From Gemmatimonadales bacterium (GTDB taxonomy: Bacteria; Gemmatimonadota; Gemmatimonadetes; Gemmatimonadales; GWC2-71-9): 64,000 bases of DNA. This document shows, in pieces, positions 6,576-16,170 of this stretch. The notes beneath the pieces are model-generated. The model was not told where the DNA came from and did no database searches. It worked only from the letters and a program-made list of their open reading frames with translations. The position numbers were made by a program, and so were the translations under genes. Location: assembly GCA_038321865.1 (NCBI GenBank), contig JBBQFH010000002.1, positions 64,001 through 128,000 of the forward strand. Reading direction: 5' to 3'. Within the stretch, counting starts at the first letter, position 1, and every line of letters starts with the position of its first letter.

Positions 6576-8342
6576 ATGCGCTTTCCGTCAGTCACGGCCT
6601 TGTTGCACCGGGCGTATGCGGTCCTGCTTCGGTTCCCCTGGACGCTGGCTGCCGCGGCGACGGCGGCGGCGGTGGCCTTCATCGGCATCGGGCTGCATGA
6701 TCCCGGCGACGAATGGGTGCGCGGAGCCATGTCCGCGATGCTCGCCGTACCGCTCAGCGCGACAGTCGCCTTCGCGGCTGAGCGGTGGCGCTGGCGAGTT
6801 CCGCTCAGCATCGCGCTTCAGCTGGCCGGCCTGGCGATCGTCACCGGTTTCTATCTGACCTGGCGCGGCCCGGACGACCAGTGGGAGATGGTCCGATACC
6901 TCCAGTTCAGCGCCGCGCTTCACCTGCTGGTCGCCGTGGCCCCGTTCGTCCGCGGCGCCGAGACGGTCAGCTTCTGGGAATACAACCGCCAGCTGCTGCT
7001 GGCCTTCCTGCGGGCGGCCTTCTTTTCGGCCGTGCTGTTCGTGGGCCTGGCGGTGGCCCTCGGCGCACTCGACAAGCTCTTCGGCATTCATGTGCCGCCC
7101 AACACGTACCTGCGGCTCTGGGTGGTGATCGCCCTGCTGCTCAACACCTGGATCTTTCTGTCCGGGCTGTCCGACGATGTGACGGCGCTGAGCGATTCGC
7201 AGTCCTATCCCCGCGCGCTCAAGATCTTCACCCAGTTCATCCTCACGCCGCTCGTCTCGGTTTACCTGGTGATGCTTACCGCGTACCTCGCCAAGATCCT
7301 GCTGACCCGTCAGTGGCCAAGCGGATGGATCGGCTGGCTGGTGGGGAGCGTGAGCGTAGCGGGCATTCTGGGATTTCTCCTCGTTCACCCGCTCCGGCGC
7401 CGACGTGACGAAGGCTGGATCGGCATCTACGCCCGCTGGCTGTTCGTGGGGCTGATCCCGGCCGCGCTCATGCTGGTCGTCGCGCTGGCGAAACGGATCG
7501 GGCCGTATGGGCTGACGGAGCTTCGAGTGATCGCCCTGTCGCTCGCGGTCTGGCTGCTGGCGATCGGCTTGCTGTACACGCTCCGGCGCGACACCGGTAT
7601 TCGCACGATACCGCTTTCGCTGGCGGCGCTGCTGCTCGTCCTGCTCGCGGGCCCCATGAGCGCGACCGCACTGTCGGTGCGCAGCCAGACCCGGCGCCTG
7701 GTGCGCATGCTCAGGGTGCTGGCAGAGGCGCCCCCGCCCGATGCCAATCCCGACGTCCGGCGCGAGACGAGCGCGGCCGTTCGCTACCTGCTCGCTCGCC
7801 ATGCGGGCGGGCCGCTCCAGGCCGTCTTTGGCCGAACCGTGGCGTTCGATGACCGGCGCATGTGCTGCGACCATGCCGACACCGTCGCAACCGGCCTTCT
7901 GGCAACGAAGTCGATTGCGTACGTGAGGGATGGCGGCGGGCCCGGCGGCCGTTTTCGCTACGCGCAGCGTCCGGCGCTCCCGGTCGAGACCAGTGGCTTC
8001 GACTGGATGGTGGATGTCGCGTCACGCGACACGGGGACGGTCGTGCTTGGCACCGATACGCTCGGCTTCCGGACCGACTCCGCAAGCGGCGCGCTGGTAG
8101 TCGCCGCCCGGAGCGGACGTATGCTTCACTTCGACCTCGCGTCCGCGTTCGCGGCACTCGGCGCCGAACCAAATTCGCAGCCCGACTGGCGCTCCGGGCA
8201 AATGCGCCTTCGGGCGGAAGACGGCGGCCTCCGCGGGCTGCTGGTCCTGACCTCGATATCGCAGAGCGGAGACAGTTCGAAGGGACGTGCCTGGGGTGGG
8301 CACCTATTCGTTGTGATGGCGCCGGATACTGCCGGCCGCTGA
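6576..8342 (+). CDS. DUF4153-like multi-pass membrane protein
   Basis: About 12 hydrophobic segments with YPRALKIFTQFILTPL, WPSGWIGW and RIGPYGLTELR motifs, then a soluble C-terminal domain. Start MRFPSV. Confidence 0.75.
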   Translation: MRFPSVTALLHRAYAVLLRFPWTLAAAATAAAVAFIGIGLHDPGDEWVRGAMSAMLAVPLSATVAFAAERWRWRVPLSIALQLAGLAIVTGFYLTWRGPDDQWEMVRYLQFSAALHLLVAVAPFVRGAETVSFWEYNRQLLLAFLRAAFFSAVLFVGLAVALGALDKLFGIHVPPNTYLRLWVVIALLLNTWIFLSGLSDDVTALSDSQSYPRALKIFTQFILTPLVSVYLVMLTAYLAKILLTRQWPSGWIGWLVGSVSVAGILGFLLVHPLRRRRDEGWIGIYARWLFVGLIPAALMLVVALAKRIGPYGLTELRVIALSLAVWLLAIGLLYTLRRDTGIRTIPLSLAALLLVLLAGPMSATALSVRSQTRRLVRMLRVLAEAPPPDANPDVRRETSAAVRYLLARHAGGPLQAVFGRTVAFDDRRMCCDHADTVATGLLATKSIAYVRDGGGPGGRFRYAQRPALPVETSGFDWMVDVASRDTGTVVLGTDTLGFRTDSASGALVVAARSGRMLHFDLASAFAALGAEPNSQPDWRSGQMRLRAEDGGLRGLLVLTSISQSGDSSKGRAWGGHLFVVMAPDTAGR

Positions 8343-8433
8343 CCGCCGAGCGCGTGGTATGGGTCACGGCGGGACCGGCTGGCGAGCGGCATGTTGGTGA
8401 GCCGTTTTCGCATGTCCCCTGGCGGAGGCTCAC

Positions 8434-10116
8434 TTGACGATCTCGCTCAAGCCGGCGCACCTGAAACGATACAAGGACATCGCACTGCTGCTGCTGAAGT
8501 ACGGCCGCGGTGACCTCGTGGCCAGCAGCGGGCTCGACGCCGACCTCGGCGAGGGGACTGAACCGGTGGCCGGATCGGGCAAGGCCGAGGAGCTGGCCGC
8601 CGACCTGGAGAAGCTCGGTCCCACGTTCATCAAGCTGGGCCAGCTGCTGTCGACGCGCACGGAACTCCTCCCGGCGGCCTACATCGATGCGTTGTCGCGG
8701 CTGCAGGACAACGTCCAGCCCTTCGCGTTCGAGGACGTCGAGCGCATCGTAACCGACGAGCTCGGGGTGCGGCTTTCCAAGGGTTTCACCGACTTCGACC
8801 CCACCCCCATCGCCGCTGCGTCCCTCGGCCAGGTGCACAGGGCGACCCTGCGGGACGGCCGTCCGGTCGCGGTGAAGGTGCAGCGGCCGGACGTCCGTCC
8901 GCTCATCGTCGAGGACCTCGAGGCGATCGAGGAGATTGCCTCCATGCTCGACCGGCAAACCGATGCCGGGCGCCGCTACCAGTTCGCGACCATGGTGCAG
9001 GAGTTCCGGAAGGGGCTGCTGGCCGAGCTCGACTACCGTCGCGAAGCGCAGAACCTGAAGCTGCTGTCGGAGAATCTCGGGGAGTTCCCGCATATCATCG
9101 TCCCGCTGCCGGTCGACGATTACACCACCTCACGTGTCCTCACGATGGACTTCGTGACTGGGCGGAAGATCACGGCCCTCAGCCCGCTGACGTTGCTCGA
9201 GGTGGACGGCGATGCACTCGCGGAGGAGTTGTTCCGCGCTTATCTCAAGCAGATTCTGGTCGACGGCTTCTTCCACGCCGATCCGCACCCCGGCAACATC
9301 TTCCTCACCGATGATCATCGCGTCGCGCTGATCGACCTGGGGCTGGTCGCGCGCGTGGCCCCGCGCATGCAGCAGTACCTCCTGCAGCTGGTGCTGGCCA
9401 TCAGCGAAGGCCGCGGTGACGAAACTGCTGACTTCGCCCTGAAGCTCGGGCAGCCGATGGCCGACTTCGACGAGGGGTCGTTTCGCCGGAAGGTGTCCGA
9501 GATGGTGGCGGAGCATCACCTGGCGCGCGCCGAGGACATCCAGGTCGGCATGGCGGTGCTCAACATCAGCCGCGTTGCCGCCGATACCGGCATCCGCCTC
9601 GCGCCCGAGCTCACCATGCTCGGCAAGACGTTACTCAATCTCGACATAGTCGGACGCACGCTCGCGCCCAAGTCCGACCCGAACGCGACGATTCGGCGCA
9701 ACGCCGCCGAACTGATGAATCAGCGGATGCTCAAGTCGCTGTCGCCCGGGAACGTGTTCGCCGGCATGCTGGAGATGAAGGATCTGACGGAGCGGCTGCC
9801 CGGCCGCGTGAACAAGATCCTCGACACCGTGGCGGCCAACGAGCTCAAGCTCCGTGTGGACACCGGTGTCGACGCGGGCTCGCTGATGGAAGGCCTGCAA
9901 AAGGTCGCGAATCGCATCGCGATGGGGCTGGTACTCGCGGCGCTGATCGTGGGCGCTGCGATGCTGATGCAGGTGCGCACGACCTTCACGATCTTCGGCT
10001 ATCCCGGGCTTGCGATGGTATTGTTTCTCGCTGCCGTCGCATTCGGGCTGCTGCTGGTGATTTCCATCGCCCGCAGCGACTATCAGGATCGCGAGCGCGC
10101 CCGACAAAAACGGTGA
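8434..10116 (+). CDS. AarF/UbiB (ABC1) family atypical kinase
   Basis: LGPTFIKLGQ, AASLGQVH, VAVKVQRP, FFHADPHPGN, IDLG; two C-terminal TM helices. Confidence 0.93.
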   Translation: MTISLKPAHLKRYKDIALLLLKYGRGDLVASSGLDADLGEGTEPVAGSGKAEELAADLEKLGPTFIKLGQLLSTRTELLPAAYIDALSRLQDNVQPFAFEDVERIVTDELGVRLSKGFTDFDPTPIAAASLGQVHRATLRDGRPVAVKVQRPDVRPLIVEDLEAIEEIASMLDRQTDAGRRYQFATMVQEFRKGLLAELDYRREAQNLKLLSENLGEFPHIIVPLPVDDYTTSRVLTMDFVTGRKITALSPLTLLEVDGDALAEELFRAYLKQILVDGFFHADPHPGNIFLTDDHRVALIDLGLVARVAPRMQQYLLQLVLAISEGRGDETADFALKLGQPMADFDEGSFRRKVSEMVAEHHLARAEDIQVGMAVLNISRVAADTGIRLAPELTMLGKTLLNLDIVGRTLAPKSDPNATIRRNAAELMNQRMLKSLSPGNVFAGMLEMKDLTERLPGRVNKILDTVAANELKLRVDTGVDAGSLMEGLQKVANRIAMGLVLAALIVGAAMLMQVRTTFTIFGYPGLAMVLFLAAVAFGLLLVISIARSDYQDRERARQKR

Positions 10117-10146
10117 GGCGACGCCGGTCGCGTCGCCTCACCGTTT
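10108..10146. terminator. Bidirectional intrinsic terminator
   Basis: Perfect 17-bp inverted repeat AAACGGTGAGGCGACGC-cggtc-GCGTCGCCTCACCGTTT with T-runs on both strands. Confidence 0.8.
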
Positions 10147-10162
10147 CGATCGCCCGACGTGC

Positions 10163-10208
10163 ATAGCAGGGGCGGGACTCGAACCCGCGACCCCGGCATT
10201 ATGAGTGC
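10163..10208. repeat. att core, left copy (displaced 3' half of tRNA-Met)
   Basis: ATAGCAGGGGCGGGACTCGAACCCGCGACCCCGGCATTATGAGTGC, identical to 13440..13485. Confidence 0.95.
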
Positions 10209-10291
10209 GGGCACACCCCCCGAGCCCCCTGCCCCTCCCCCAGTCGACGCGGCTTAGAGCGGCACGACTCGGCAGGGAAGTGCCTGACTAC

Positions 10292-10313
10292 TGTTGCCAC
10301 CCGTTTTGCCATT
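10292..10313 (+). repeat. Putative integrase arm-type sites (left arm)
   Basis: TGTTGCCACC at 10292 and degenerate TTTTGCCATT 12 bp later. The same decamer occurs twice at 13348/13360. Confidence 0.65.
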
Positions 10314-10604
10314 GAATTGCCGCGCGGTAGCCGGGCTGCGTCCGCTAGAGCGTGCGCCAGCCGACTGAATCTCCCCACAAGACTCCCCACACGCCTTCGA
10401 AGCACATTCTGGAATTGGCGGGAATGAAACCAAGGGCGGCAGTGCAGTCACGAGTCCGGCGTGGTGCCCGGCTTAAGCCCATGCGCGCTGCAAGCCTTTG
10501 GATCTTTGCGACGCCGTGACGAATCCCCCTGTGGCCCCCTTACGCTTTCCCGGGGCGGCGGCCCCATCGGCGTCGGAAAGGTCAGCATCGCCTGCGATTT
10601 CACG

Positions 10605-10841
10605 TCAGTTCCACATCTCCTGCGCCAGCGAGGCGAGCGTATGCCCGGCCAGTTCGATCTCCCGCGCCGCCTTCCGCATAGCCGGCCAGTCATCCCCGTG
10701 GATGGCAGTATCGAGGAGGACGGTCGTCCACCTGAGCGTGGCACAGGCGTCGTTCACGTCATCAGTCCACTGGACCGCCATCCTGGTGCTCGGCGGGTCC
10801 GAGCGGGGCTCAGGACCGACCGTGGGGTTGCGGTATCTCAT
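10605..10841 (-). CDS. Hypothetical 78-aa protein of the element
   Basis: GGGAGG RBS just before the ATG; TATAAC -10-like box about 33 nt upstream; helical-looking C-terminal half. Confidence 0.55.
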   Translation of the reverse strand: MRYRNPTVGPEPRSDPPSTRMAVQWTDDVNDACATLRWTTVLLDTAIHGDDWPAMRKAAREIELAGHTLASLAQEMWN

Positions 10842-11122
10842 AACGCCTCCCAGCTATTCCTGGTCCACTTCGGGTTATACGCAACTGTGATGTAGGGGTG
10901 GTTGCTGCGTGGCGAGCTTTTCTGACGACCGCAGCGTTCACCCGTGGTGTGATGTAGATAACATCGGTGTGATGAAGGCAGACCGAGCAAGAGTGTGAAG
11001 TTTTCTTTGGTCGCTCGACGTCAGGACACCGCACGACTCGCGGAACGCGGCTAGCTGATGGGCGCCGGCGGCTGAGAGCCTGACACCTCATTTGTTCACT
11101 CGTTCCCATAGGCAACGATTCC

Positions 11123-11563
11123 ATGGCAGAGATCAAGACTCAGCGCACGAAAGCTAGCGTCTCGGACTTCCTCAGCGCGATTCCAGACCCGATCCGCCGG
11201 AAAGAGGCTCGCACCCTCGCAGCCCTGATCCGCAAGGCTACGGGGAGCTCTCCGGCTATGTGGGGGGCCAGCATCGTGGGGTTTGGTGCGGTGACCTATA
11301 CCGGGACCCGGGGACGGACCGTCGATTGGTTTCCGGTGGGTTTCTCGCCGCGCAAGGCAACCCTCACCATTTATCTCATGGGCGGCCTGAAAGCTCATTC
11401 AGACTTGCTCAAGCAGCTTGGTCCGCACAAGGTCGGCGGCGGCTGCCTCTACCTTTCGAAGCTGGCTGAGGTCAACACCAAGGTCCTCTCCCAACTCATT
11501 GTCAGGAGCGCGGCGACCAATAGCCAAACGAACCGGCCGGCGCAGGCGAAGCCGCGAAGATGA
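11123..11563 (+). CDS. DUF1801 (YdhG-like) protein, element cargo
   Basis: MWGASIVGFG, WFPVGFSPRK, LGPHKVGGGCLY motifs; codons visibly less GC3-biased than host genes. Confidence 0.85.
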   Translation: MAEIKTQRTKASVSDFLSAIPDPIRRKEARTLAALIRKATGSSPAMWGASIVGFGAVTYTGTRGRTVDWFPVGFSPRKATLTIYLMGGLKAHSDLLKQLGPHKVGGGCLYLSKLAEVNTKVLSQLIVRSAATNSQTNRPAQAKPRR

Positions 11564-11600
11564 GGGGATCGAACCCCCGACCTCGCGCATGTAAGGCGGG
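11557..11600 (-). pseudogene. tRNA-Val(TAC) 3'-half relic
   Basis: Minus strand reads CCCGC-CTTACAT-GCGCG-AGGTC-GGGGG-TTCGATC-CCCTC-ATCTT: anticodon loop, variable loop and T arm in tRNA register. No 5' half is present. Confidence 0.7.
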
Positions 11601-11728
11601 ACAGGCGCGTTGACTGGCGTTGGCGTGCACTCATTCTCCCTCTAGAGAGCCGGAGCAACGTGCATGAGCGTCGGCCGGCGCGTACCGCTGTTGGCACCAC
11701 GAACGGCACCACGAAGAGCTTTCCGCTC

Positions 11729-11872
11729 CTACCCCTGCATCATGTCGATGCCCTTAAGCGCCAGCACCGCCTCGTACAGCGTCGGGTAGTCCCGCTTGAA
11801 GTAGAGCAGTCGGTTGCCGTCGATGGTGTCCACTGCGTGGCAGAGATTCCGCACTGCGTCGTCGCGGGTCAT
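11729..11872 (-). CDS. Hypothetical 47-aa protein (below the ORF-track cutoff)
   Basis: MTRDDAVRNLCHAVDTIDGNRLLYFKRDYPTLYEAVLALKGIDMMQG*. GC3-rich codons; its ATG overlaps an upstream TGA (TGATG). Confidence 0.5.
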   Translation of the reverse strand: MTRDDAVRNLCHAVDTIDGNRLLYFKRDYPTLYEAVLALKGIDMMQG

Positions 11873-11986
11873 CACAGCGGCCCCGGAATATCGCAGGTCC
11901 ACCGCTCCGTCGTCGGCTCACCAACCTCACCACCACCGGCCTGGGTCGCGATCGCACGGAGGATTCCCCGCGAGCTCCTGCTTGCC

Positions 11987-12241
11987 TTGCTGGGCGAGGC
12001 GGCATCCGCCGGCGTCGGCCCCAATCTCCCCGACTACCTGACCCAGCAGGAGGCCGCGGCCCTTCTCCGCGTTTGTCCCCGCTTCCTTCGCGGCTCCTCC
12101 TGCCCCAAGCAGCTGCTGCCGTCTGGCGGCCCCCGTGGTCGGCCGCTCGTGCGCTATCTTCGCTCGGAGGTGCTGGCGTGGGCCAGTGCCCGGGCGCTCC
12201 GTCCCCTGCCCCACGTCGCGTCACACCGAAAGGCATCGTGA
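11987..12241 (+). CDS. Excisionase/RDF-like winged HTH protein (start uncertain; frame open from 11660)
   Basis: YLTQQEAAALLRVCPRFL...RPLVRYLRSEVLAW is a Xis/HTH_17-like pattern, directly upstream of the integrase. Confidence 0.7.
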   Translation: MLGEAASAGVGPNLPDYLTQQEAAALLRVCPRFLRGSSCPKQLLPSGGPRGRPLVRYLRSEVLAWASARALRPLPHVASHRKAS

Positions 12242-12349
12242 TGGTCTTTCGCCGGCGTCCCCGCCCCCAAATGGTATCTCTACCTCCCGACCCGGACCGG
12301 CTGGGTCCAACGCTCGAGCGGGACCACGGACAAGGCGACCGCACGGGCG

Positions 12350-13495
12350 ATGGCGCAGATGCTCGCCGCCCTGGGGCCGCGGGGCACGCCCGACTGGGAA
12401 CTGCTCGATGCCGTGCTGGCGGACACGGTCACGATCGGCACGCTCTACGATGCCTGGCAGCACGATGATCTCGCGGGCCTGCGCGCCCGGCTCACCGATA
12501 TTGACGTCACCGGCCATATCGACGGCTGGCAGAGGTGGCTCGGGGATCGCGTGGCGCCGGACACCGCCCAGCATTACCTGGTGTACCTGACGACGCTCAT
12601 GCCGTCGGGTGAGCCGTTCTGGCGGTCCGCCCTCAGCGCGCCGACCGTCGCCCGCTGGCTCGCCGCGCGGGCCGGCGTGTCCGCCGGGACGAAGCGGAAG
12701 TACCTAGCAGCCGTGCAATCGTTCGCCAAGTATCTGCTTGAGGTCGGCGTGCTGGCCGAGCACCCGCTCCGCGACGTGTCGCCGCCGCCCGCGGCGGATC
12801 CCCGCTGCCACTTCCTCGAGCTGCCCGATGTCCGCCGCGTGGTGGAGGGGGCGCCGCAGCCGTTCCGGGCGATGTACGCGCTCGCCTATGGCGCTGGGCT
12901 CGAGGTGAGTGCCATTCTCGGGCTGGTGGACGCCGATGTGGATCCCGTCGCGCGCCAGGTCCGCGCCCGCGGCACGAAGGCGTGGACGCGCGACCGGCTC
13001 GCGCGGGTGGCGGATTGGGCGTGGCCGCACGTGGCGGAGCACCTCGCGGCCGTGCTGCCGGGCAGCCGGGTCTTCCTCGGGATGGATCGCTGGATCGTCG
13101 GTGAGGCGCACCGGACCCGTGTGCGAGCACTGGGGCTCGACGGCTACCGCCTGCACGACGCACGACACCACTGGGCCGTCCGGATGGCGCGGGCTGGCGC
13201 GCCGCTCGAGCTGATCGCGCGCCAGCTGGGGCACCGGGACACCGCGATGTGCTCGAAAGTCTATGCCCGCTTCACGCCGAACACGGTGGAACGCGACCGC
13301 TGGGAGGGTGTGGCGGCGAGCTCGGATGAGGCAAAATGGGGACGCCTTGTTGCCACCAGTGTTGCCACCGAGATGGATAACCGTGTGGAGTCACGCGAGG
13401 ATAGCGCGGGAACAGCTGACGATGCAGCGAGTTATGTCAATAGCAGGGGCGGGACTCGAACCCGCGACCCCGGCATTATGAGTGCCGTGCTCTAA
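12350..13495 (+). CDS. Tyrosine recombinase/integrase (probable true start 12241 via a +1 frameshift)
   Basis: SAM-like domain (SAGTKRKYLAAVQSFAKYL), GTK, HDARH, LGHRD and KVYARF catalytic motifs. The ORF crosses the att core and stops inside the tRNA. Confidence 0.92.
   Translation: MAQMLAALGPRGTPDWELLDAVLADTVTIGTLYDAWQHDDLAGLRARLTDIDVTGHIDGWQRWLGDRVAPDTAQHYLVYLTTLMPSGEPFWRSALSAPTVARWLAARAGVSAGTKRKYLAAVQSFAKYLLEVGVLAEHPLRDVSPPPAADPRCHFLELPDVRRVVEGAPQPFRAMYALAYGAGLEVSAILGLVDADVDPVARQVRARGTKAWTRDRLARVADWAWPHVAEHLAAVLPGSRVFLGMDRWIVGEAHRTRVRALGLDGYRLHDARHHWAVRMARAGAPLELIARQLGHRDTAMCSKVYARFTPNTVERDRWEGVAASSDEAKWGRLVATSVATEMDNRVESREDSAGTADDAASYVNSRGGTRTRDPGIMSAVL
13348..13369 (+). repeat. Putative integrase arm-type sites (right arm, inside int)
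   Basis: TGTTGCCACC twice with a 12-bp period, ending 70 bp before the att core. Confidence 0.7.
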
Positions 13496-13514
13496 CCAGC
13501 TGAGCTACCCTGCC
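13441..13514 (-). tRNA. tRNA-Met(CAT), probably elongator; CCA not encoded
   Basis: GGCAGGGTAGCTCAGCTGGTTAGAGCACGGCACTCATAATGCCGGGGTCGCGGGTTCGAGTCCCGCCCCTGCTA folds as a cloverleaf; lacks the initiator GGG/CCC anticodon stem. Confidence 0.95.
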
Positions 13515-13526
13515 GAAGGAGGGGCA

Positions 13527-13552
13527 ATCCTAGCCCGTGCGGCGGCGGTGCG

Positions 13553-13556
<4 letters not shown>
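13527..13556 (-). promoter_or_regulatory. Putative sigma70 promoter of tRNA-Met
   Basis: TTGACG-N18-TAGGAT, 12 nt upstream of the tRNA. Confidence 0.55.
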
Positions 13557-15135
<1,579 letters not shown>

Positions 15136-15160
15136 TCACATGAGTACGGCGGACGCGGGC

Positions 15161-15189
15161 AACCTAGCGGTCGCCAGCGGAGGCGTCAA
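15161..15189 (-). promoter_or_regulatory. Putative sigma70 promoter of eno-ftsB
   Basis: TTGACG-N17-TAGGTT upstream of eno. Confidence 0.5.
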
Positions 15190-15204
15190 CGTGGGCTGTG
15201 ATGC

Positions 15205-16170
15205 CTACGCAAAGTGATCAAAGCCGGCCGCGCGCACCGGATGGCCATCGAGCGACATCACCACCGTGCCGCCGTCGGTCACGCGACCGATTCGGGTCAG
15301 CGGGAGCATGCAGTCGCCGCGAAACGTCGTGGCCTCCGCCACGCTGAACTCGGGCGGCAGCACGACGAGCAGCTCATAGTCCTCGCCCCCTCGCGCGGCG
15401 AAAACGGCAGCCTCCTCGCCGGCCCGAACGGCGGCCGCGCCGACGGACTGGGCGAGCGGCAGTGTGCCCAGGTCCAGCTCGAGTCCGACCGCCGACGCCG
15501 CGGCGAGATGGCCGGCGTCCGATGCCAGGCCATCGCTCAGGTCCAGCATCGCCCGCGCCCCGTGAGCCGCAAGCCAGCGACCTGCGCGCAACCGCGGCAC
15601 CGGGTGCGCGAAGGCGTCGCGGGCAACGCTGTCCGGCTCGCCACCCGCGGTCCACGCCTCGAGCGCCGCGCGCGCGGCGCCGAGGGAACCGGTGACCCAC
15701 ACACCATCTCCGGGAACCGCGCCGGTTCGCGCGACAGGTGCCACGGCTCGGCCCAGCGCCGTGACGGCGATTGTCCAGTCCGTGCCGACCGACAGATCCC
15801 CACCGAGCACCTGGCCGCCGGCGGCGGTGGCGGCCAGGCCGACGCCACGCATAAGGGCGGACACATCCGACTCGGGCGCCGCGCGTGGCGCGGCAACGGC
15901 GGCCAGGACTCCCAGGCAATCCGCACCCTGTGCGGCAAGGTCGGACAGCGCCGCCGCGGCTGCCCGCCACCCGCTCTCCTCCATGGTCAGCCAGTGCCGG
16001 CGGAAATGCACGCCCTCGACGGAGAGGTCGGTACTGACGACGAGCGATCCGGCGAACGGAGGAACCACGGCACAATCATCCCCCAGCGACGCCGCGGACG
16101 GTCCCAGTACCTGTGCGATAGCGCGAATTCGATCGAACTCGACACCCGGGCCGAGCGGCGTATGGCTCAC
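15205..16170 (-). CDS. thiL: Thiamine-monophosphate kinase
   Basis: GDDCA, STDLSVEGVHF, SDLAAQG, GGDLS, DLSDGL, GGEDYELL. Confidence 0.93.
   Translation of the reverse strand: MSHTPLGPGVEFDRIRAIAQVLGPSAASLGDDCAVVPPFAGSLVVSTDLSVEGVHFRRHWLTMEESGWRAAAAALSDLAAQGADCLGVLAAVAAPRAAPESDVSALMRGVGLAATAAGGQVLGGDLSVGTDWTIAVTALGRAVAPVARTGAVPGDGVWVTGSLGAARAALEAWTAGGEPDSVARDAFAHPVPRLRAGRWLAAHGARAMLDLSDGLASDAGHLAAASAVGLELDLGTLPLAQSVGAAAVRAGEEAAVFAARGGEDYELLVVLPPEFSVAEATTFRGDCMLPLTRIGRVTDGGTVVMSLDGHPVRAAGFDHFA

Follow-up and report, generated by a model that had tools for sequence, protein, structure and literature searches.

An attachment site within the integrase gene and a predicted exchange of the integrase C-terminus in a tRNA-Met element family of Gemmatimonadota

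Introduction

Why certain integrases extend across their own attachment site has long been asked, with few cases to go on (Mx8, Mx9, SSV). The question is raised here by a 3.3-kb element in a stretch of 64,000 nucleotides, hereafter the window, from a Gemmatimonadales bacterium (lineage GWC2-71-9; GenBank assembly GCA_038321865.1, contig JBBQFH010000002.1, positions 64,001 to 128,000 of the forward strand). The integrase gene (int) of this element reads through one of two attachment (att) copies into a tRNA-Met gene, and a preliminary description, made from the letters alone, had proposed that recombination swaps the C-terminus and that the circular form, with its Ala-Ala end, is unstable. We infer from frame, length, stop and composition that the C-terminal swap is a trait of the integrase family and is under selection; the element itself is a decaying member of a Gemmatimonadota-type family of integrative elements and prophages that enter tRNA-Met at the anticodon loop.

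Attachment sites and the computed circle

10163..10208, + strand: left att copy, a duplicated 3′ part of tRNA-Met, recognized by the repeat and the tRNA match
10209..10257, + strand: circle-form tail codons, 17 residues after Met, Pro-rich, net charge -2, -DAA end, stop TAG
12241..13495, + strand: tyrosine integrase gene, with a +1 frameshift at 12264-12271, next in-frame ATG at 12350 and integrated end -SAVL
13440..13485, + strand: right att copy, whose antisense translation yields the tRNA-derived peptide, with the probable crossover at 13476-13482
13441..13514, - strand: intact tRNA-Met(CAT), host of the right att copy

The two att copies form an exact direct repeat of 46 bp with a spacing of 3277, by far the top repeat in a search of positions 8000-16000, and the repeated sequence is the 3′ part of the minus-strand tRNA-Met(CAT) at 13441-13514, probably an elongator tRNA to judge from the other CAT tRNAs of the genome and from identity rules. 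In the integrated state, the int frame runs through the right att copy and ends in ...IMSAVL at the TAA of 13493-13495; on the computed excised circle of 3,277 bp, it continues across 10209-10257 and ends in ...PPVDAA, giving a circle form of 394 aa and an integrated form of 381 aa, both counted from ATG 12350, a difference of 13 residues. The repeat search and the computed circle confirm the att pair, the circle size and the -SAVL and -VDAA ends as first described. The crossover is probably the 7 bp at the anticodon loop (10199-10205 in the left copy), a placement supported by the relatives, in which the identity of the left end to the tRNA stops directly after the anticodon loop. The layout is of the Mx8 type, with the crossover within the int coding sequence, the catalytic domain kept and the C-terminus replaced. 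A second tRNA called by ARAGORN at 10164-10233 was rejected as a gene, since it is the att fragment, and a fourth tRNA with a CAT anticodon (G000:C93:2229-2303) is unlike the other three and is possibly foreign or misbinned.

The joint of 13485 to 10209 was not found in contigs from three runs of one sample, two of them without cover of the site, and such contigs can reveal presence, not absence; no RNA data set containing the element was listed. Circle-form proteins in the databases were rejected as proof of excision because assemblers can join across the 46-bp repeat; the strongest candidate among them, L191, is a viral contig of 54.5 kb that carries a terminase gene. Among five genomes of the same genus, tRNA-Met was seen in three, the element in none and a remnant of its right end in one.

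Conservation of read-through in the integrase family

The named relatives of the integrase belong to Gemmatimonadales or Gemmatimonadota, and a match at E 1e-15 occurs in 41 of the 401 genomes of the order. Among 287 collected proteins, 101 end in S(A/V)VL after the tRNA-derived peptide, a count that includes the window's own protein and near-duplicates, and 17, in 12 clusters, bear another tail. A tree built on 166 catalytic regions shows, with support 0.91, a clade of 88, of which 77 members read through the tRNA-Met site, nine have other long tails and two stop early, one as a cut protein and one by a frameshift; a second clade has read-through in 14 of its 22 members. Elsewhere in the tree the att layout is the same, and the proteins mostly end 25-35 residues beyond the catalytic Tyr. 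Read-through changes six times on this tree versus 46 times for shuffled labels. The search query included the tail, so that rankings favour read-through members; distant early-stopping members were still listed. The crossover lies about 70 codons beyond the catalytic Tyr, and the linker takes 19 different lengths in 91 proteins, with the frame kept in all. An att site within int and a swapped C-terminus, as originally proposed, are both supported and conserved, apparently under selection. An ESM Atlas search returned generic integrase clusters only.

The overlap of int with attP may also be a by-product of compactness or history, with selection only keeping a disordered extension short, soluble and harmless in both states, and with excisionase alone setting directionality. 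Residues 375-417, counted on the integrase, are predicted to be disordered; most of the wider family stops early at the same att layout; the ends of the tails follow a DNA repeat; and unrelated phage integrases read through in the same frame, which, as frames are read from the sequence, is the only frame to cross the crossover point. A neutral extension, however, should often be lost, and only two of the 88 clade members stop early among integrases that are 53-76% identical; the by-product explanation is rather unlikely.

Some relatives differ in site or frame. Clade members L113:8337-8460, L139:1999-2122, P0017, P0030, P0059, P0065, P0069 and P0073 have long tails ending at sites other than tRNA-Met, and are probably target switches with read-through retained; P0021, P0096, L057 and P0137 read into other tRNAs. 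In one genus (L199-L206), a different D-loop of tRNA-Met would make the integrated end three residues longer (-SAVLSPG), and L279 (G358:C3) has two left att ends for one tRNA, that is, tandem elements at tRNA-Met. L051, L052, L055, L056, L131 and L135 stop early with the linker open in the core frame and share the same one-base offset, attributable to DNA architecture, ancestry or a frameshift signal.

Length, charge and endings of the circle-form tails

10246..10275, no strand assigned: degenerate 10-bp-period repeat, spanning the last two tail codons and the stop; clear in relatives, degenerate in the window

The 72 distinct non-tRNA att ends comprised nine from read-through integrases, 22 controls (integrases stopping early or pointing away, from the same locus or, for four ends, the same genome), 18 unassigned ends and 23 viral ends of other or unknown integrases, which were dropped. 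With database proteins included, the circle-tail set holds 20 distinct tails (L228 comes from the unpublished genome G117, and the right end of L085 is damaged). Seventeen residues follow the Met in 11 of the 20, and no more than 28 in 18 of the 20; none of the 22 control ends has this length (range 1 to >200). When the first 17 tails were compared with the 22 controls, length 17 was found in 10/17 versus 0/22, net charge was lower (p 5e-5) and hydrophobic residues were fewer (p 1e-5), values that overstate the case and serve as a guide only, since kin share descent. Three tails added after the statistical test have 17, 15 and 115 residues, none of them with an -AA end, and four of the unassigned att ends encode acidic tails of 17 residues on the same plan, three ending in -AP and one in -EA. 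The tail terminates at one fixed codon, by TAG, TGA or TAA, while DNA identity over codons 1-13 is only 52%; the next unit of the 10-bp repeat has sense bases at the position equivalent to the stop, and no frame other than that of int gives an acidic tail. A variable stop at a fixed codon and acidity in the int frame only argue that the tail is selected as a protein, and not for Ala-Ala.

The endings follow a different pattern from the lengths. Only the window's own tail ends in -AA (1/20); six end in Pro, and the others in AE, EA, EE, KD, DA, EG, KS, LA, RS or LD. The -AP ends of the relatives arise because the last two codons fall in the 10-bp DNA repeat, and the window's -AA corresponds to a two-base change in that repeat, best explained as drift in a gene already broken near its start. 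An in-frame -AA end of the circle form is not conserved among the relatives.

These data bear on the initial proposal that the circle form is unstable, through a direct -AA tag for ClpXP in the window copy; in relatives with -AP ends, tagging by transfer-messenger RNA (tmRNA) at a Pro-stop could have the same effect. Tags of the xxDAA type are enriched in ClpXP-positive E. coli (PMC10862746), so that such an end can be a substrate there; the host tmRNA tag ends in -MAA; a Pro-stop draws tagging (PMC3082878); BPs has tags on repressor and integrase (PMC3694055); and in an unrelated group of phage integrases three circle tails are basic with a terminal Ala, one of them ending in -AA. On the other hand, -AA occurs in one tail of 20 and at least eight tails end in EE, AE, EA, KD, DA or EG; the E. 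coli screen finds Ala-Ala alone insufficient and favours neutral or basic hydrophobic tags, and its enriched DAA tags carry a hydrophobic or aromatic residue where the window tail has Pro (PMC10862746). The window int is frameshifted, and the presence of an excisionase-like gene beside int, in the window and in many relatives, weakens the notion of directionality set by proteolysis alone. An unstable circle form is distinctly unlikely. Host proteins ending in -AA are common (54 of 1708 crude open reading frame calls), a figure too noisy for further use.

On viral contigs, distantly related phage integrases (L232/L255, L237/L238, L246, L236, L264) use the same tRNA-Met frame to -IMSAVL. Three circle tails of this group are short and basic, with the ends -KRRA, -KSAA and -KKKA, and the idea of an unstable circle may fit this group (L232/L238/L264) better. 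A viral scan with the L264 integrase matched only L264 itself.

A possible role for the exchange

The reading preferred here, with a probability of roughly 0.4, is that the -SAVL end dampens the integrated enzyme and that the acidic tail favours the circle form. In the large clade, by the sequences, the gene continues through the arm DNA and the att core, and recombination trades a four-residue, tRNA-fixed hydrophobic end (-SAVL) for a 17-residue acidic end rich in Pro and Ser. The swap would tune the level or the activity of the integrase in the sense of Mx8; the integrated form, with its Leu end, would be shorter-lived or weaker, which would hold the element at its site up to the synthesis of excisionase, and the circle form, with its acidic tail, would be stable and drive integration. 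In M. pneumoniae reporters, a C-terminal Leu gave the fastest decay and Asp the slowest, a 3.6-fold range (PMC7246954), and the Mx8/Mx9 swap provides a precedent (PMC6070905).

Several points, in addition to the shared descent of the tails, weigh against this reading or against selection on the swap. The linker is open in the core frame also in 11 of 13 elements without read-through, four of them frameshifted relatives of read-through members, so that its openness is partly a matter of DNA architecture, and read-through has been lost in some side branches. The -SAVL end is dictated by the tRNA and its constancy therefore shows nothing. Six of the 20 circle tails end at a Pro-stop, a context able to trigger tmRNA tagging, and such ends can draw it (PMC3082878). 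In the E. coli DEtox data, none of six -AVL-ending tags was enriched in the wild type (14 of 25 AVL matches examined), and all 12 -DAA rows (12 of 19 DAA matches) were enriched only in ClpXP-positive strains, so that the window's own tail could be a modest tag by accident (PMC10862746). Neither PVDAA nor MSAVL is among the tags of supplement media-3 of that source (PMC10862746).

The active site of the family

A model of the integrase matches XerA, lambda Int and Cre, in keeping with the fold and profile of tyrosine recombinases, and the complete R-K-H-R-H-Y catalytic set was not found. In alignment with XerA and XerD, their box-I Arg corresponds to a Glu (residue 221 in the frame that begins at 12242), and 269 of the 270 family proteins aligned carry Glu or Asp at this first catalytic position; the Lys, the second Arg and the Tyr are nearly invariant, and the first His is variable. 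A pair of Arg residues that closely follow the catalytic Lys is invariant and may stand in for Arg I. The many intact, site-specific members imply that the family is active. IntCTnDOT and IntDes likewise have no box-I Arg or a shifted one (PMC8138268); the present family differs in the Glu/Asp of 269/270 proteins and in the two invariant Arg after the Lys, and the accessible text of that source describes no such subgroup and makes no mention of Gemmatimonad- (PMC8138268). A family-wide loss of the first catalytic Arg would add a variant of tyrosine-recombinase chemistry.

The altered active site is compatible with another explanation, in which the tails act on the enzyme and not on its lifetime, changing synapsis, DNA binding or excisionase contact so that each form prefers one reaction. 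Integration of Mx8 shifts the site preference of its integrase without inactivating it (PMC6070905), and a fixed length and charge would suit a contact surface. The tail nevertheless has no conserved motif beyond its charge and its DNA-derived end, and the prediction of disorder extends to it; this explanation is unlikely.

The frameshifted integrase gene of the window copy

The int frame 12242-13495 matches Pfam Phage_integrase (PF00589) above the cut-off, and the preliminary description had overlooked a frameshift at 12264-12271. The natural start, ATG 12241, overlaps the stop of the HTH_17 gene and is out of frame with the integrase; in P0002, the closest intact relative (69% identical), the same first ten residues are in frame. 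Since intact relatives share these residues in frame, the window copy has one extra base at 12264-12271 and leaves the frame after about codon 10, and a start at ATG 12350 omits the predicted N-terminal strands. The extra base is also present in a Logan contig of run X1, the only run with the element and possibly the source sample. An assembly error was rejected as the cause, as the Logan contig shows no difference over 11906-12607, with the same reservation on the origin of the run. A programmed frameshift is not favoured: relatives are in frame there, and split frames are scattered elsewhere. Decay is common, with split integrase frames at scattered positions in 15 of 80 metagenome loci. The window copy, its integrase no longer intact, is probably immobile on its own power.

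Other features of the element

10108..10146, no strand assigned: host hairpin, a perfect inverted repeat of 17 bp immediately beyond the element; absent from the terminator scan
10292..10311, + strand: left arm-type repeat, 12-bp period, 88 nt beyond the anticodon loop, 90% match to 13348-13367
10605..10841, - strand: 78-aa open reading frame, no family, no relative among the loci compared; may not be a gene
11123..11563, + strand: DUF1801 cargo gene, its stop codon within the tRNA-Val fragment
11559..11717, no strand assigned: relic second att end of a tRNA-Val element, with a 39/40 match to the 3′ part of tRNA-Val(CAC) at 11559-11598
11660..12241, + strand: excisionase-like gene, Pfam HTH_17, weak PHROG excisionase match, stop overlapping the int start
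13348..13367, + strand: right arm-type repeat, within the int reading frame

The element runs from the left core through the tail codons, the 10-bp-period repeat, the 12-bp-period arm repeat, the 78-codon open reading frame, DUF1801, the tRNA-Val relic and HTH_17 to int, which contains both the right arm repeat and the right att core. It is not the minimal element once supposed, for besides int it carries an excisionase-like gene, a pair of arm repeats and the relic of a second att end. The arm repeats lie 83-90 nt beyond the anticodon loop in most relatives, differ in sequence from element to element, and recur on the opposite side in about 9 of 15 complete elements, as picked automatically. 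By analogy with lambda-type systems, on which these roles are modelled, the arm repeats may act as integrase sites, and the 10-bp repeat at 10246..10275 is a candidate for excisionase binding. The family has a lambda-like kit of a predicted N-terminal three-strand arm-binding domain, paired element-specific arm repeats and an HTH_17 gene; the window copy has no arm-binding domain in frame.

The homology of the HTH_17 gene to its relatives, found in dozens of related loci, is in the last ~85 codons, and its true start is probably later than 11660. The tRNA-Val relic has its own 12-bp-period arm repeat at 11694-11717. DUF1801 homologues occur in 7 of 40 related genomes, and none of these seven loci adjoins a tRNA; DUF1801 as a usual neighbour of tRNA-Val was therefore rejected. 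A promoter scan found no site within the element, nor does the element contain a repressor. The hairpin at 10108..10146 probably serves as terminator both to the tRNA and to the ABC1-kinase gene that converges on it.

Comparison with known systems

Mx8 and Mx9 resemble this family: they have a tyrosine integrase whose gene holds attP in its 3′ part, and integration gives a new C-terminus to an enzyme that stays whole (PMC6070905, PMC4383910). The present family differs in that four residues are traded for 17, all in a disordered tail, in its target, tRNA-Met, and in the absence of the first catalytic Arg. The exchange in Mx8 is reportedly far longer. No Mx8 or Mx9 integrase was among the 15 records found at E 1e-5 in the phage collection. 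In the 'suicidal' archaeal integrases of SSV1, pTN3 and pT26-2, the att site from the 3′ part of a tRNA is likewise translated within int (PMC7253208), but SSV-type integrases are split into two inactive halves, whereas here the catalytic domain is kept and the tail alone changes. In BPs, recombination also alters a protein C-terminus, with attP in the repressor, a constant integrase tag and no excisionase or arm site (PMC3694055); the window element, by contrast, has att in int, an excisionase-like gene and arm repeats, no repressor and, with -AA in 1/20 tails, no conserved ssrA-like tag. The layout of att inside int is already known from Mx8 and Mx9; a literature search, with most subscription journals outside its scope, listed no paper on the present family and none on integrase tails at tRNA-Met that change with the state of the element.

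Significance

A wider proposal, speculative and itself improbable, is that a hitherto undescribed Gemmatimonadota integrase family with Glu/Asp for Arg I uses the antisense strand of its target tRNA as an off-signal, integration lowering the enzyme level through a tRNA-encoded hydrophobic end and excision restoring the acidic tail, and that integrases of unrelated phages, whose tails are basic and end in Ala, arrived independently at this tRNA frame; the templating of tail swaps by tRNA may then be a widespread device, evolved more than once, that lengthens or shortens the life of a recombinase. The family offers about a hundred natural variants with built-in controls, namely early-stopping integrases at the same site, and selection appears to act on a tail found on the circle alone, so that what the swap does can be tested directly with no more than a pair of short tails. 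The family could also supply an integration tool to a phylum in which genetic tools are scarce.

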